Assembly (NCBI RefSeq): GCF_053078305.1
Contig: NZ_CP166879.1
DNA: 64,000 bases
Strand: one strand, 5' to 3'
Made by a program: the position numbers and the translations under genes
Notes under the pieces: model-generated
Databases searched by the model: none
What the model saw: the letters and a program-made list of their open reading frames with translations, nothing else
What the model was told of the DNA's origin: nothing
In this document: piece after piece, positions 10,520 to 30,599 of the stretch
Layout: each line of letters opens with the position of its first letter
How positions within the stretch are numbered: the first letter of the stretch is position 1

Positions 10520-12964
10520 TTACACCTTTTCAACCTGAACAAGGTTTGTATGTGACGGATTCCCCTTAGCGAGAGGAGACGGACGTTGAGTGGTCAGTAC
10601 GTTAATACAACCACCCTTATCGACACGTTTTGCATCCGGGTCATACCAGGCACCTTCACCCAGTGCGACCACACCCGGCATCATTCGTGGCGTCACTTTC
10701 GCCTCAATATGAACCTCACCACGATCGTTAAAGATCCTGACTTTATCGCCGTTGTGGATACCGCGTTTTTGGGCATCAAGCGGGTTGATCCACATTTCCT
10801 GACGGCAAGCCGCTTTCAGCACATCAACGTTGCCGTAAGTTGAGTGAACGCGAGATTTATAGTGGAAACCCGTAAGCTGCAGCGGATACTGTTTGTTCAG
10901 CGGATCCTGATAACTTTCAAAGCCCGGCGTGTAGATCGGCAGTGGATCGATCACATCGCCTTCTGGCAATTCCCAGGTAGCGGCAATGTCAGCCAGCGCC
11001 TGCGAATAAATCTCAATTTTGCCCGATGGCGTAGTCAGTGGGTTTGCCTGCGGATCTTCACGGAAGGCTTTATAAGCAACGTGATGCCCTTGTGGGTCGC
11101 GCTTTTTAAAGATCCCCTGCTTGCGGAACTCTTCAAACGTTGGCAGTTCAGGAATCGCTTCCCGCGACTGGGCATACAGATGCCGCATCCACTCTTCCTG
11201 TGTACGACCTTCAGTAAACTGTTGCTCAACGCCAAGACGTTTTGCCAGTTCGCTGGTCATCTCATAGATGGTCTTACATTCAAAGCGCGGTTTAATCACC
11301 TGATCGTTGAAAATCACGTAAGACATATTCCCGCAGGATGCATCCAGCGCAAAGTCCATCTGTTCGGAAGCGGTGCAGTCAGGCAGCAGGATGTCAGCAT
11401 ATTTCGCCGATGAAGTCATGTGGCAGTCGATAACCACAATCAGCTCGCACTTCTTATCATCCTGGAGGATTTCATGGGTACGGTTGATTTCAGAATGCTG
11501 GTTAATCAGGCAGTTACCGGCATAGTTCCAGATCATTTTGATCGGCACATCCAGCTTATCTTTCCCGCGCACACCATCACGCAGCGCCGTCATTTCCGGG
11601 CCACGTTCAATGGCATCGGTCCACATAAACATCGAAATGCTGGTCTGGATCGGGTTTTCCAAGGTCGGCATACGGACAAACGGTAAGCTGTATGAACCTT
11701 CACGCGCGCCGCTGTTCCCTCCATTAATACCAACGTTACCGGTCAGAATCGCCAGCATCGAGATAGCGCGAGTCGCGATTTCGCCGTTGGCGTGGCGCTG
11801 CGGCCCCCATCCCTGGCTGATAAACGCCGGTTTGGTACTGCCGATTTCACGAGCCAGTTTGATGATTTTGTCTGCCGGAACACCGGTGATTTGCGAGGCC
11901 CATTCCGGTGTTTTAGCCACGCCATCTGGCCCTTCACCCAGAATATAAGCTTTATAGTGGCCATTTTTCGGCGCACTGGCTGGCAGGGTTTTCTCGTCAT
12001 AGCCAACGCAATATTTATCGAGGAATGCCTGATCCACCAGGTTTTCGGTGATCATGACATACGCCAGACCGTTAACCAGTGCGGCATCTGTTCCTGGACG
12101 AATAGGGATCCACTCATCTTCGCGCCCGGCACCGGTGTCGGTATAGCGCGGATCGATGATGATCATGCGGGCATTAGATTTCTGGCGTGCCTGTTCAAGA
12201 TAGTAAGTCACCCCACCGCCACTCATTCGCGTTTCGCCAGGGTTATTACCAAACAGCACTACCAGCTTACTGTTTTCGATATCCGACGGGCTGTTGCCAT
12301 CTGCCCAGCCGCCGTAGGTATAGTTCAGACCTTCCGCAATTTGCGCGGAAGAGTAGTCACCGTAATGGTTCAGATAACCGCCGCAGCAGTTCATCAGCCG
12401 CGCGACCAGGGTATTTCCCGGCGGCCAGGAGCGGGTCATGGTGCCACCCAGCGTACCGGTGCCATAGTTAAGATAGATGGATTCGTTGCCGTACTCTTTG
12501 ATCAGGCGCTGCATATTGGTCGCGATGATGTCGTAGGCTTCTTCCCAGCTAATGCGCTCGAATTTGCCTTCACCGCGCGCCCCGACTCGTTTCATCGGAT
12601 ATTTCAGGCGGTCCGGATTATAGACACGGCGACGCATGGAACGCCCACGCAAACAGGCGCGAACCTGGTGCAGGCCGTCGTAATTGTCATCGCCGGTATT
12701 GTCCGTTTCGACATATTTGATTTCACCGTCCACGACGTGCATACGTAGCGGGCAGCGACTACCACAGTTAACTGTACAGGCGCTCCAGATAACCTTTTCG
12801 TCTGATTTTGTTGGAATGGCGCTATCGACAGCGTGCGCAATCCGACTAAAAGGTAATGTTAATGCGCTGCTGGCCATTGCCAGGCCGCCGATCGCTGTCG
12901 TTTTTACCAAACCACGGCGACTCACCTCAGCAGCCAATACCGCATCAGGGATTTTCGTTTTCAT
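10520..12964 (-). CDS. dmsA: DMSO reductase catalytic molybdopterin subunit (Tat signal)
   Basis: 814 aa; N-terminal twin-arginine signal (SRRGLVKTTAIGGLAMA); molybdopterin oxidoreductase motifs. Confidence 0.93.
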   Translation of the reverse strand: MKTKIPDAVLAAEVSRRGLVKTTAIGGLAMASSALTLPFSRIAHAVDSAIPTKSDEKVIWSACTVNCGSRCPLRMHVVDGEIKYVETDNTGDDNYDGLHQVRACLRGRSMRRRVYNPDRLKYPMKRVGARGEGKFERISWEEAYDIIATNMQRLIKEYGNESIYLNYGTGTLGGTMTRSWPPGNTLVARLMNCCGGYLNHYGDYSSAQIAEGLNYTYGGWADGNSPSDIENSKLVVLFGNNPGETRMSGGGVTYYLEQARQKSNARMIIIDPRYTDTGAGREDEWIPIRPGTDAALVNGLAYVMITENLVDQAFLDKYCVGYDEKTLPASAPKNGHYKAYILGEGPDGVAKTPEWASQITGVPADKIIKLAREIGSTKPAFISQGWGPQRHANGEIATRAISMLAILTGNVGINGGNSGAREGSYSLPFVRMPTLENPIQTSISMFMWTDAIERGPEMTALRDGVRGKDKLDVPIKMIWNYAGNCLINQHSEINRTHEILQDDKKCELIVVIDCHMTSSAKYADILLPDCTASEQMDFALDASCGNMSYVIFNDQVIKPRFECKTIYEMTSELAKRLGVEQQFTEGRTQEEWMRHLYAQSREAIPELPTFEEFRKQGIFKKRDPQGHHVAYKAFREDPQANPLTTPSGKIEIYSQALADIAATWELPEGDVIDPLPIYTPGFESYQDPLNKQYPLQLTGFHYKSRVHSTYGNVDVLKAACRQEMWINPLDAQKRGIHNGDKVRIFNDRGEVHIEAKVTPRMMPGVVALGEGAWYDPDAKRVDKGGCINVLTTQRPSPLAKGNPSHTNLVQVEKV

Positions 12965-13263
12965 AATGGCTCACTCAAGCTTGCTCACGATTGATTCCAG
13001 TAACAAACCGTATTGTGTAATTATTTCTATAGCAGATCGCTATATAGGCTTGTATACATCGAATAATTTGAAAATCAAAGAGATAGGTAGATTTTCACTC
13101 GAAAGTAGTATTACGTGTAAGTGAGGAGTAATTATTGTTCGGTATCAAAGGGAGACAAAAAAAGCGCCCGCAGGAGGTTTAACGCTACTTACTCCCCTTG
13201 ATGATTTGCTTATTTTTCAATGAGTAAATCAAAACAAGGGGAGCAAATAAGCACAAGTTACAA

Positions 13264-14256
13264 CTAATCGATGGACAGTTTATGGACACTTTCAGCCAGC
13301 GGATTAAAGCTGATTGCATCCTGTAAAAAGTCCGGCGAAAAATGCGCATACGTCATCGTTTGTTGAATCGTGGCATGGCCCAGGATTCGTTGTAGCGTAA
13401 CGATATTTCCGCCATTCATCATGAAATGTGTAGCGAATGTATGACGCATGACATGGGTGGCCTGCCCTTTCGGTAAGTCCGGCTTCACCTCCTGAAGGAT
13501 CTCCCGAAATCTGAGGTAATCAGCCTGGTACAACAATCCGGTTCTGCGGGTTTTAATTAACGCAAGTACCGCATCAGAAACGGGAACGGCGCGAGATTTT
13601 CCGTTCTTGGTGTTAAAGAACATCACGCGGTTACCTACAATATGTTCCCCACGTAAACCAGCTGCTTCACCCCACCTTGCCCCCGTGGAAAGACACAGAA
13701 TGGCAACACGCCGCGCATCTCCATCGAGTCGTTCAAGCAGTCGTTCAATCTCCTCATCTGAAAGAAAGGCCATCTCTGTGTTCCTGACTTTCAGCTTACG
13801 TATTCCCCGAACCGGGTTTTCGTTATGGAACACCTCACCCTCAATCAGCGAGCTGAACATTGCAGACAAGGCACACAAATCGCGGTTAATGCTGGAAGGC
13901 ATTAACCCGGCCTGTAATTTGTCGGACCGGTACCCGAGCATAAATTTTCGCGTCATCTGACTGGCACGAGGATCACCCATCTCACGGTTTATCTTTTCCA
14001 GTCTGACCCTGTAGGTATCCCCGTAATCCTGGTTACGACCATCAAGCAACCACCAGGCCTCTATCAGTTCGGATAACCGACGCTGATCTGCTGGCTTAGC
14101 CTGCCATGGCTTATCATGAAAATTCTGCAAAACATACCTTTCAAACTCCTGCGCCTTTGACTTCAGGGTAAAAATCTTACGAATCCGCTTTCCTTCCGTC
14201 CCTTGTGGCCTTACATCAACCTTATAACGTCCGTCTTTGAGTTGCTTAATCGACAT
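13264..14256 (-). CDS. int: Phage integrase, tyrosine recombinase (P2 Int-like)
   Basis: N-terminus MSIKQLKDGRYKVDVRPQGTEGKRIRK closely resembles P2 Int; C-terminal catalytic region HVMRHTFATHFMMNGGNIVTLQRILGH...TMTYAH; track ORF begins at an upstream TTG. Confidence 0.9.
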   Translation of the reverse strand: MSIKQLKDGRYKVDVRPQGTEGKRIRKIFTLKSKAQEFERYVLQNFHDKPWQAKPADQRRLSELIEAWWLLDGRNQDYGDTYRVRLEKINREMGDPRASQMTRKFMLGYRSDKLQAGLMPSSINRDLCALSAMFSSLIEGEVFHNENPVRGIRKLKVRNTEMAFLSDEEIERLLERLDGDARRVAILCLSTGARWGEAAGLRGEHIVGNRVMFFNTKNGKSRAVPVSDAVLALIKTRRTGLLYQADYLRFREILQEVKPDLPKGQATHVMRHTFATHFMMNGGNIVTLQRILGHATIQQTMTYAHFSPDFLQDAISFNPLAESVHKLSID

Positions 14257-14325: not shown

Positions 14326-14673
14326 TCAGCCAGCATTGCGGCCTGATCGGGATGATTTTTGGGTAACGTCGATTGAAGCCAGATCGCCCTCCGACTGAGA
14401 AGATCCATCAAGAGAGAGAGCCGGGGCAATTTGACCCCCAGCTTCAAACGTTTCATCAGTTGTTAACCAAAGTGCATATTTTTTAAAACGTAAATTTTTT
14501 GTGATCTTTAATAAGATCTCACTTCCGATTCCATCTTGCCTTCCCGTTTCGTAATACCTCTGCGTATTAACAGGAATCCCTGTAAGCTCAAAGAATTGCT
14601 TCCTTGTAAGCCTCTCACTTTTCCGGATCATCAAGATTTTTTCACCGATACTTATTGACAGTGTCGAATTCAT
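14326..14673 (-). CDS. Immunity repressor (P2 C-like)
   Basis: From MNSTLSISIGEKILMIRKSERLTRKQFFELTGIPVNTQRYYETGRQ...GQIAPAL; matches P2 C repressor pattern (EKIVLMRKSE...YYESGR...SGQIAPAL) by recall; adjacent to int. Confidence 0.75.
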   Translation of the reverse strand: MNSTLSISIGEKILMIRKSERLTRKQFFELTGIPVNTQRYYETGRQDGIGSEILLKITKNLRFKKYALWLTTDETFEAGGQIAPALSLDGSSQSEGDLASIDVTQKSSRSGRNAG

Positions 14674-14774
14674 ACCACTAAAATCCTCGCAAAAGTGTCG
14701 TAATTTCGACATTAAACAAACCAAAACAAACCTTCATAAGGTGCAATAGGCGCACCTGTGCGAGAGGATAACAA
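14674..14774. promoter_or_regulatory. Divergent lysis/lysogeny switch region between C-like repressor and Cox-like gene
   Basis: Tandem 10-bp direct repeat (t/a)aaacaaacc x2 at 14713-14732 plus palindrome ggtgcaataggcgcacc at 14740-14756; P2-type repressors bind direct repeats. Confidence 0.5.
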
Positions 14775-15299
14775 ATGCGGGACTTCATTGCCGATAAAGA
14801 GTTATCTGACACCGATCACACAACTGGAGCGGCGTACATCAACGCCGATACCAGTCAACAAGAAGCAACAGATAACAACGACGAACAAAAGCCACAGCGC
14901 ACATATAAAAAAGGGGCAACCCTGCGGCTGGATGGCCCAATAGCCGGGCTTTGCTCACTTGAAAAAGGGGCCGCCTACATCGGATTAACAAAAACAGCAT
15001 TACGCGCAGCTCTCCAGCGTAACCAGATGCCAGGGCATAAAACCCGCTCAAACCCTGAAGATGAGAATTCGGATGGTGTTTGGTGGTTTAACGTCAGAGA
15101 GTGGGACAAGCTGGCCGACGAACTCCCGGAATGTGAGCCACCAGAATGGCACAACTGGAAAAGCTACTGGACATACGACCGCCAGAAAAGAAAGTTTACC
15201 CCGGCTGATAAGGAAGATTGCCAGACCGTCAATGGAAAACGGGTTTACAAAGGCAGAAAGTCAAAGCTGGAACAGAGCCAGGATGTAAACGAACGGTGA
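14775..15299 (+). CDS. Cox-like excisionase/transcriptional regulator with long N-terminal extension (start uncertain)
   Basis: Segment GAAYIGLTKTALRAALQRNQMPG...GVWWFNVREW resembles P2 Cox HTH region by recall; divergent from repressor; 174-aa ORF is longer than P2 Cox (91 aa). Confidence 0.5.
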   Translation: MRDFIADKELSDTDHTTGAAYINADTSQQEATDNNDEQKPQRTYKKGATLRLDGPIAGLCSLEKGAAYIGLTKTALRAALQRNQMPGHKTRSNPEDENSDGVWWFNVREWDKLADELPECEPPEWHNWKSYWTYDRQKRKFTPADKEDCQTVNGKRVYKGRKSKLEQSQDVNER

Positions 15300-15305
15300 T
15301 GAACG

Positions 15306-15701
15306 ATGAGCGGCAAAAATAAGTCAGAAAAAAACACAACCGTCCTTAAGCAGTTAAGCCTCCTGAAAGAGGAACACAAGGACGCCACGATACTGATGCA
15401 TCTGGAAGGCTCACCGAAAATAACAATCACAACAACCTATAGCGAGTTACACAAAGAGCTTGAAGGATTAATTAACTTTTGTTCAAAGCTAAAAGCGAAT
15501 GAAAACATTGATGACCTGATACTTAAACCAGAAGCAGAGTTCGGGCACTTTTGCGAAAGTAGAGAAAATGGATGCATCGGAATAATGCTATACGCAACCC
15601 GCGGAATAATGATTAATCTGCCCGTTGAGCAGGCTGTGGATATATTCGGAGAAATGGCACTTAATAAAACCACTATTTACAAAAGAAAAATGCCGGAGTA
15701 A
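15306..15701 (+). CDS. Hypothetical protein in AT-rich moron (131 aa)
   Basis: ATG overlapping stop of upstream gene; local GC ~40% versus ~55% in flanking phage genes; no recognisable motif. Confidence 0.45.
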   Translation: MSGKNKSEKNTTVLKQLSLLKEEHKDATILMHLEGSPKITITTTYSELHKELEGLINFCSKLKANENIDDLILKPEAEFGHFCESRENGCIGIMLYATRGIMINLPVEQAVDIFGEMALNKTTIYKRKMPE

Positions 15702-29892: not shown

Positions 29893-30599
29893 TAAGCGGC
29901 CAGCTGAACCCGCAGCAGCTGGCAGAAGCACAGGCGATGCTTCAGTCGCTGGATCTGCCCCCGAAAAAACGCCGTCGCCTGTTATGGCGTATTGCCCGGC
30001 ACGGCATTATCGCCGCTGCCAGACGCCATCAGCGCGATCAGGCCGCACCGGACGGTACAGCATGGGCACCCCGGAAACGCGGTAAGGGGAAAATGTTCAG
30101 AAAGCTGCCGCGTCTTCTGGCGGTCCGTGAGATGCCCGGACAGGATGCCGTAAAGGTTTATTTCCGTAACGGCAATCACACCAGTGGCAGGAGCCGCATC
30201 AGTGCCGGTGCCGTGGGCTGGGTTCACCACAACGGCGCAGAAATCCGGGTCAGTGCTGACAGCTTCAGCGGTCAGGACCAGAACGGGCAGACCGCCACCC
30301 GCCGACAGGCAAAACGACTGCGGGAGCTGGGCTTTAAGGTACGCCAGAAGGGGCGCTGGCGGAAAGCATCCATGAAATACCTGTTAACGCTTTCGCGGGC
30401 GCAGGCCGGGTTGCTGATCACCATTATGGAAGATCAGATTATCGCCGGACCACGCCAGCAGAAGGCCCGGACATGGACCATTACCCTTCCGTCGCGCGTC
30501 TTTCTGGGGGTAACAAACGAAGAATTTTCACACATCCTGGCACGCCAGATGAACGCAATGGGCTACGGCCTGGACGTTGACGCACAGGATATCAGATAA
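29889..30599 (+). CDS. Phage virion morphogenesis / tail completion protein (P2 gpS / Mu G family-like)
   Basis: 236 aa; position after R-like gene. Confidence 0.4.
   Translation: MISGQLNPQQLAEAQAMLQSLDLPPKKRRRLLWRIARHGIIAAARRHQRDQAAPDGTAWAPRKRGKGKMFRKLPRLLAVREMPGQDAVKVYFRNGNHTSGRSRISAGAVGWVHHNGAEIRVSADSFSGQDQNGQTATRRQAKRLRELGFKVRQKGRWRKASMKYLLTLSRAQAGLLITIMEDQIIAGPRQQKARTWTITLPSRVFLGVTNEEFSHILARQMNAMGYGLDVDAQDIR

Follow-up and report, generated by a model that had tools for sequence, protein, structure and literature searches.

A 174-residue Cox-type protein of a P2-family prophage, most probably translated from its first ATG

Introduction

The Cox protein of phage P2 forms a helical filament that wraps DNA, represses the Pc promoter, and promotes excision (PMC3936717). 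The P2 cox-boxes are spaced at 10–11 bp and overlap Pc, and lambda Xis is described in the same paper as having an unstructured tail (PMC3936717). In phage 186, Apl doubles as a switch regulator (PMC7498355). The operators of P2-type phages are direct repeats (PMC1904268).

Variation among P2-like switches was treated by Nilsson et al. (2011, PMC3448106). In that paper, GQIAPAL is given as a motif conserved in P2-type C proteins, a "group 2" of Cox proteins is described as larger than group 1, with only six residues in common, and the UTI89 prophage PhiECO5 is among the prophages analyzed.

The present analysis concerns a window of 64,000 nucleotides from contig NZ_CP166879.1 (assembly GCF_053078305.1). 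The original prediction for this window, made from the sequence letters, proposed a Cox-like protein of roughly twice the length of P2 Cox, encoded divergently from a repressor gene. The ORF very probably encodes a Cox-type regulator of a P2-family (Peduoviridae) prophage, a protein of 174 aa whose translation begins at the first ATG.

Results

Gene neighborhood and prevalence of the long cox gene

The window contains a prophage of ~33 kb, inserted between dmsA (10520–12964, minus strand) and serS. The prophage genes are of P2 type, including those for portal, terminase, scaffold, major capsid, Ogr/Delta, and gpA replication proteins. The integrase gene (13264–14256, minus strand) is a RefSeq CDS for a P2-type tyrosine integrase of 330 aa with the Pfam domains Int_N and Phage_integrase. 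It adjoins the HTH repressor gene (14326–14673, minus strand). The 115-aa product of this RefSeq CDS is a P2-type C immunity repressor (PHROG 147, E 3e-27) and contains GQIAPAL within GGQIAPALS. The long cox-type gene lies on the plus strand at 14775–15299, divergent from the repressor as proposed. Its ORF of 174 codons plus stop begins at the first ATG, again in agreement with the prediction, and RefSeq carries the same 525-nt CDS. With 174 aa against 91 aa, the estimate of about twice the P2 Cox length was accurate.

The order of int, C-type repressor, and long cox was kept at different chromosomal sites, and it was seen in Salmonella, Serratia, and Yersinia loci and in UTI89. For the att core, no exact repeat of at least 12 nt was common to the int-proximal junction (12965–13263) and the window beyond position 30000. 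In a near-identical genome (L005, 32589–34733), the far end of the prophage adjoins two Hok/Gef genes and serS.

Downstream of cox, a 131-aa ORF (15306–15701, plus strand) starts 6 nt after the cox stop codon and had no Pfam or PHROG match. The gene directly 3' of cox varies between related prophages. In some related prophages with a long Cox, one gene of the early operon encodes the Pfam "Derepression" domain, PF25738 (L010, 8446–8579; L011, 7309–7542; L012, 7388–7669), a domain that we presume may be the P4 epsilon antirepressor family.

A search of 5,426 complete E. coli genomes found homologues in 356 (~6.6%), all of the matches listed being annotated as Cox family. Near-identical DNA with the same 525-nt CDS annotated was found in ten complete E. 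coli genomes. Since the long form is already cataloged in RefSeq and as PHROG 23196 and is fairly common in E. coli, it is an ordinary member of the E. coli prophage gene pool. The RefSeq product name is "Cox family DNA-binding protein", and no paper using this name was found in the literature.

Probable identity as a Cox protein

The protein proved to be Cox-like, as originally predicted. Residues 59–130 matched PF10743 (Phage_Cox) over model positions 11–86 of 87, with 27.4 bits, 0.1 bit short of the gathering cut-off of 27.5, and nearly all homologues carry PF10743 in the precomputed Pfam assignments. Residues 1–170 matched the 174-position model of PHROG 23196 (E 3e-95), and residues 28–135 matched the 121-position model of PHROG 1831. 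Judging from its model length and the matched region, PHROG 1831 is presumably a shorter Cox-type family. The NCBIfam search with the protein gave no match.

In hhalign comparisons, the family profile aligned with the 123-aa Cox of phage pro483 over residues 49–136 (probability 97%, E 6e-11). The comparison with the single sequence of the 91-aa P2 Cox was marginal (probability 9%). When the PDB was searched by sequence, neither the family profile nor the core sequence retrieved a Cox structure, and only the fold search found one. The top Foldseek match of the AF2 model in the PDB was P2 Cox (4LHF) with a probability of 1.00 and an E-value of 2.3e-3 (TM 0.65 normalized to the target, 75 columns, ~19% identity). 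A putative Klebsiella excisionase ranked second, and RdfS and mycobacteriophage Xis appeared further down. The model shows a winged-HTH fold like that of P2 Cox plus C-terminal helices.

By position, the gene is the first of the early operon, divergent from the repressor and beside int in a P2-like genome. Its product is unlike the characterized members P2 Cox and WPhi Cox in size (~80–90 aa against 174 aa). Size is no formal criterion of the Cox family, the annotated members of which range from 91 to ~196 aa.

Acidic head, winged-helix core, and basic tail

The AF2 model rests on an alignment of 80 sequences that includes Cox proteins of intermediate length; with a shallow alignment of 51 sequences, pLDDT was 45 and the model was unusable. 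Residues 46–134 form a Cox-like winged-helix domain between a disordered acidic head and a conserved basic tail.

The N-terminal extension covers codons 1–45 (14775–14909, plus strand). Codons 1–12 are conserved (MRDFIADKELSD), and codons 13–45 encode a hypervariable acidic linker with in-frame indels and a basic patch at its end. Residues 1–45 include 10 D/E against 5 K/R. The pLDDT was ~45 over residues 1–45 and below 50 for residues 1–38.

The core covers codons 46–134 (14910–15176, plus strand) and is supported by Pfam, hhalign, AF2, and Foldseek. The model places the HTH helices at residues 62–69 and 73–81, the wing strands at 87–90 and 102–106, and further helices at 107–120 and 123–130, including the PPEWHxWK motif. 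The pLDDT was 86–96 over approximately residues 51–125.

Codons 135–174 and the stop codon (15177–15299, plus strand) encode the C-terminal tail, recognized by its conservation and charge. Residues 135–174 include 12 K/R against 7 D/E, a net charge of +5 within a family range of +3 to +10. R136, F141, K146, C149, G154, R161, and the SKLE motif (S163–E166) are invariant or nearly so. The tail was modeled with moderate confidence (pLDDT 65–73).

This layout differs from the original prediction, which placed the HTH segment in the C-terminal half behind an acidic N-terminal region of ~70 residues. The HTH helices are predicted at 62–69 and 73–81 within a core at approximately 46–134. The acidic character of the N-terminal region stands, but its length is reduced to ~45 residues. 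The extra length of the protein is shared between this extension and the 40-residue basic tail, which the prediction did not include.

The charge pattern was surveyed in an alignment of 80 Cox proteins comprising long forms and relatives. The core was constant at ~88 aa, the N-terminal extension ranged from 5 to 62 aa, and the C-terminal tail ranged from 6 to 46 aa and was net positive. All 24 of 24 long Cox proteins had an extension with a net negative charge, as did 91% of the other relatives (100–180 aa). Head charge and tail charge were anticorrelated, with rho values of −0.52 overall and −0.50 within the long family; the relationship is uncorrected for phylogeny and weak within subgroups. 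In this alignment, the head, core, and tail charge pattern recurs, in shorter form, across the Cox subgroup of 100–196 aa. By this comparison, the 174-aa protein stands at the long extreme of a continuous size range, and Cox proteins of 115–148 aa occur in many Peduovirus phages and enterobacterial prophages.

Several Cox homologues of 118–123 aa are annotated as "ribosomal protein S15P/S13E" (L004, 1586–1957, in phage pro483; KR073661, KR073660, LR595885, and LR595887). This label on Peduovirus Cox homologues is evidently a mis-annotation.

Conserved first-ATG start and reading frame

The comparison covered 48 related loci, 41 of them distinct, taken from viral contigs and from the genomes of E. 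coli, Salmonella, Yersinia, and Serratia. The homologous protein set comprised 51 full-length sequences of 166–192 aa, with identity down to 52%. Upstream of ATG1, a Shine-Dalgarno (SD) sequence, GAGGA (14764–14768), is followed by a 6-nt spacer, the whole covering 14764–14774 on the plus strand. The anti-SD pairing was calculated as −5.8 kcal/mol. An in-frame TAA lies two codons 5' of ATG1 (14769–14771).

The SD, spacer, and ATG block, GAGGATAACAAATG, was kept in 41 of 41 distinct loci, with the exception of a single A-to-G change (GATAGC) in three of them. Across the loci, it can be written as (A/G)GAGGATAACAA(A)ATG. The flanks of this block have diverged, and the adjoining operator region is wholly different between immunity types. 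Within the 51 proteins, M1, A6, L10, and S11 are invariant. Among 27 distinct DNA alleles of the N-terminal extension, frame 0 alone was free of stop codons in all 27, despite the linker indels. The pN/pS of the linker was 0.15–0.49 in pairs with unsaturated dS and 0.56 when pooled, compared with 0.16 for the Cox core and 0.29 for the C-terminal tail. At the sequence level, the linker pattern is one of relaxed but real coding constraint, and the start site and reading frame of the long cox gene are conserved among the loci.

A +1-frame ORF of 61 aa over the N-terminal extension (14758–14943, plus strand) was rejected, being open in only 20 of 27 alleles. The +1 frame is often open because frame 0 is poor in hydrophobic codons; the more hydrophobic alleles have 4–5 stops.

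A frozen block from the Shine-Dalgarno sequence to codon 12

Conservation around the start extends over 14764–14810, from the SD sequence to codon 12. Synonymous divergence collapses in the first 12 codons, with a pooled pS of 0.14 against ~0.7 elsewhere. Codon entropy was 0.18 bits in codons 1–12 against 0.97 bits in the core, and TTA TCT was used in 35 of 35 alleles. The synonymous conservation of codons 1–12 supports a translation start at ATG1. A pS of 0.14 also means that the conservation of codons 5–12 is at least partly at the nucleotide level, so the conservation of the N-terminal peptide is no proof of a function of the peptide itself.

The block includes an inverted repeat (14766–14807, plus strand), with GGATAAC over the SD sequence (14766–14772) and GTTATCT in codons 9–11 (14801–14807). 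Most alleles had the corresponding GGAUAAC/GUUAUCU helix in their MFE fold, and a G.U pair is retained in the one arm variant. As an SD-sequestering hairpin, the structure was not more stable than shuffled sequences (z −0.53), and no compensatory change was found among the alleles.

These features could be read as a long form made from ATG1 whose N-terminal extension is functionless at the peptide level. The 12 conserved codons would then be a nucleotide-level element, such as an initiation-region structure or a protein-binding site, and the linker would be a tolerated, drifting spacer. The loss of synonymous divergence in codons 1–12, the pairing in most MFE folds, and the hypervariability of the linker in both sequence and length are consistent with such an element. 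However, the hairpin z-score, the lack of true compensatory change, and a linker pN/pS below 1 argue against this reading. The head has also stayed net negative in 100% of long Cox proteins and 91% of the other Cox relatives despite the turnover of its sequence, and its charge scales with the positive charge of the C-terminal tail. We regard a peptide without function as a real possibility, though a doubtful one.

Internal start codons

The original prediction offered two explanations for the length of the ORF: an internal non-ATG start or an extended Cox variant. The conserved ATG1 region together with the Cox-like core supports the extended variant. The internal start failed, as no in-frame ATG, GTG, or TTG occurs between codon 1 and Met85, and only CTG50 and CTG52 are found there. 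Met85 itself belongs to the invariant MPGHK motif, which lies just past the predicted helix-turn-helix. An internal start with a good ribosome-binding site giving a protein of ~90 aa was also considered in the prediction; no such start was found, and CTG50 would yield ~125 aa.

A true start near codon 50, which is CTG here and TTG in some relatives, would give a Cox protein of ~125 aa, comparable to the pro483-like forms of 118–123 aa. The upstream 147 nt would then be a leader or incidentally translated, which would fit the predicted disorder of residues 1–45. An SD-like AAGGGG lies 6 nt before CTG50, with −7.0 kcal/mol against −5.8 kcal/mol for the SD sequence of ATG1, but this string merely encodes a conserved Lys-Lys-Gly. 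The TTG found in 13 of 35 alleles is preceded by AAAAAAGGAG, an AAGGAG-like SD sequence. However, the 35 distinct alleles carry CTG (8), TTG (13), TTA (11), CTT (1), and CTA (1) at this codon, so the site has not been kept as a start codon, and four of the tabulated distinct loci are without any canonical start before Met85. The essentially invariant SD, spacer, and ATG of the first start, the invariant first residues, the openness of frame 0 in 27 of 27 alleles through indel-bearing linkers, and the pN/pS below 1 also count against it. We consider a start near codon 50 very improbable as the origin of the main product. A minor short isoform may arise from an internal start in the TTG alleles. 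The reading preferred here is translation of the full 174 aa from ATG1.

Candidate promoters, operator, and phased boxes of the switch region

A candidate early promoter Pe was located at 14655–14684 (plus strand), with TTGACA, an 18-nt spacer, and TAAAAT (11 of 12 in the promoter scan). This promoter extends into the beginning of the repressor gene, and transcription from it would be expected to start at ~14691. The −35 sequence TTGAC was kept in 11 loci. As this Pe-like promoter lies 5' of ATG1, the N-terminal extension is expected to be transcribed. A weak candidate for the lysogenic promoter Pc, taken from reading the sequence and absent from the output of the consensus promoter scan, may face Pe on the minus strand (14711–14739). 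It consists of a −35 TTATGA (14739–14734), a 17-nt spacer, and a −10 TTTAAT (14716–14711), and its transcription would be expected to start at ~14704.

A repeat search identified the direct repeat AGTGTCG at 14660–14666 and 14694–14700 (14660–14700, plus strand), which brackets the −10 of Pe. The repeated word tracks the repressor allele, being AGTGTCG here, AGATAAC in loci L002 and L003, and other, partly palindromic words in L006 and L011. The direct repeat may be the C operator, as it appears to co-vary with the immunity type in the way expected of one. Together, the short C-type repressor with GQIAPAL and the candidate direct-repeat operator at Pe are P2-type switch traits.

Four boxes with a 10-bp phase, ACAAA, ACAAA, ATAAG, and ATAGG, lie between Pe and the cox start (14716–14750, plus strand). 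Among 35 distinct loci, ACAA[AG] was present 59 nt before the ATG (−59) in 26, at −49 in 31, at −39 in 18, and at −29 in 25, and locus L038 has five phased boxes. The boxes are kept in register across immunity types. The ACAAR array was unique in the 64-kb window and occurred in 0 of 20 shuffles; no phased box array was found near the prophage ends. The array is a candidate set of Cox-binding boxes over the candidate Pc.

That the protein is another winged-helix protein in the Cox position, for example one acting solely as a Cro-like repressor or solely as an AlpA/Xis-type excisionase, would agree with the marginal sequence similarity to P2 Cox and with the failure to find candidate binding sites at the att ends, but is highly unlikely given that P2 Cox is the best structural match in the PDB, the profile link to the Cox proteins of bona fide Peduovirus phages is clear, the order of int, C, and cox is identical, and the phased repeats resemble cox-boxes.

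Discussion

With translation from ATG1 as the very probable reading, the annotation question can be taken as settled: the long form is a real gene product, and its start was not mis-called.

If it behaves like P2 Cox and 186 Apl, the long Cox would act after Pe fires, oligomerizing on the ACAAR boxes that lie in 10-bp phase between Pe and the cox ATG. Cox on these boxes would cover the facing Pc and shut off the transcription of C and int. The same analogy suggests that the long Cox would also serve as an excision directionality factor with Int. In addition, the acidic head might compete with DNA, within the same molecule, for the basic tail and core and in this way tune the concentration threshold or extent of filament formation, which is a tentative idea that we consider rather unlikely. 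The broader proposal is that the head and tail act together as an electrostatic module by which a filament-forming directionality factor regulates itself, and/or that the frozen block from the SD sequence to codon 12 controls cox translation in cis, as an operator, an RNA hairpin, or a protein site. We rate this proposal as unlikely.

The Cox proteins studied in the laboratory (~90 aa) are the short end of a family, and the rest of the Cox subgroup has a constant core of ~88 aa with an acidic head of variable length and a basic tail. Tuning of filaments on DNA by the head and tail, should it occur, would bear on the setting of P2-like switches and on excision.

Comparison with known systems

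P2 Cox (91 aa; 4LHF; PF10743) is likewise encoded by the first early gene, divergent from C and beside int, and has a winged-helix fold. The candidate boxes with a 10-bp phase over the expected Pc region would be a further likeness. In contrast, the protein described here has an extra acidic disordered N-terminal extension of 45 aa and a basic tail of 40 aa, and the candidate box word is ACAAR, compared with TTAAAG/CNCA in P2.

The Cox proteins of pro483, P24E6b, 11W, and related phages (118–123 aa) share the ~88-aa core and the PxEWHxWK motif, and here too the core lies between a variable, acidic extension at the N terminus and a basic tail, which is short. However, their extension is ~21–26 aa and their tail ~9–12 aa, against 45 and 40 aa here, and core identity is ~26–31%. 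Both these pro483-like proteins and the long form probably belong to the larger "group 2" Cox that Nilsson et al. noted (2011, PMC3448106).

PhiECO5 of UTI89 (NC_007946) also lies beside dmsA with the int/C/cox layout and encodes a 173-aa Cox of the PHROG 23196 family. Protein identity would be ~74%, as estimated from similar 173-aa alleles. It differs in immunity type, C operator words, and linker sequence.

[quoted passage not shown] The tail of Xis is C-terminal and binds Int and Fis. Neither Apl nor Xis has a detectable sequence relationship to the 174-aa protein, and neither has an acidic N-terminal extension, the feature that the long Cox has in addition to its basic tail.
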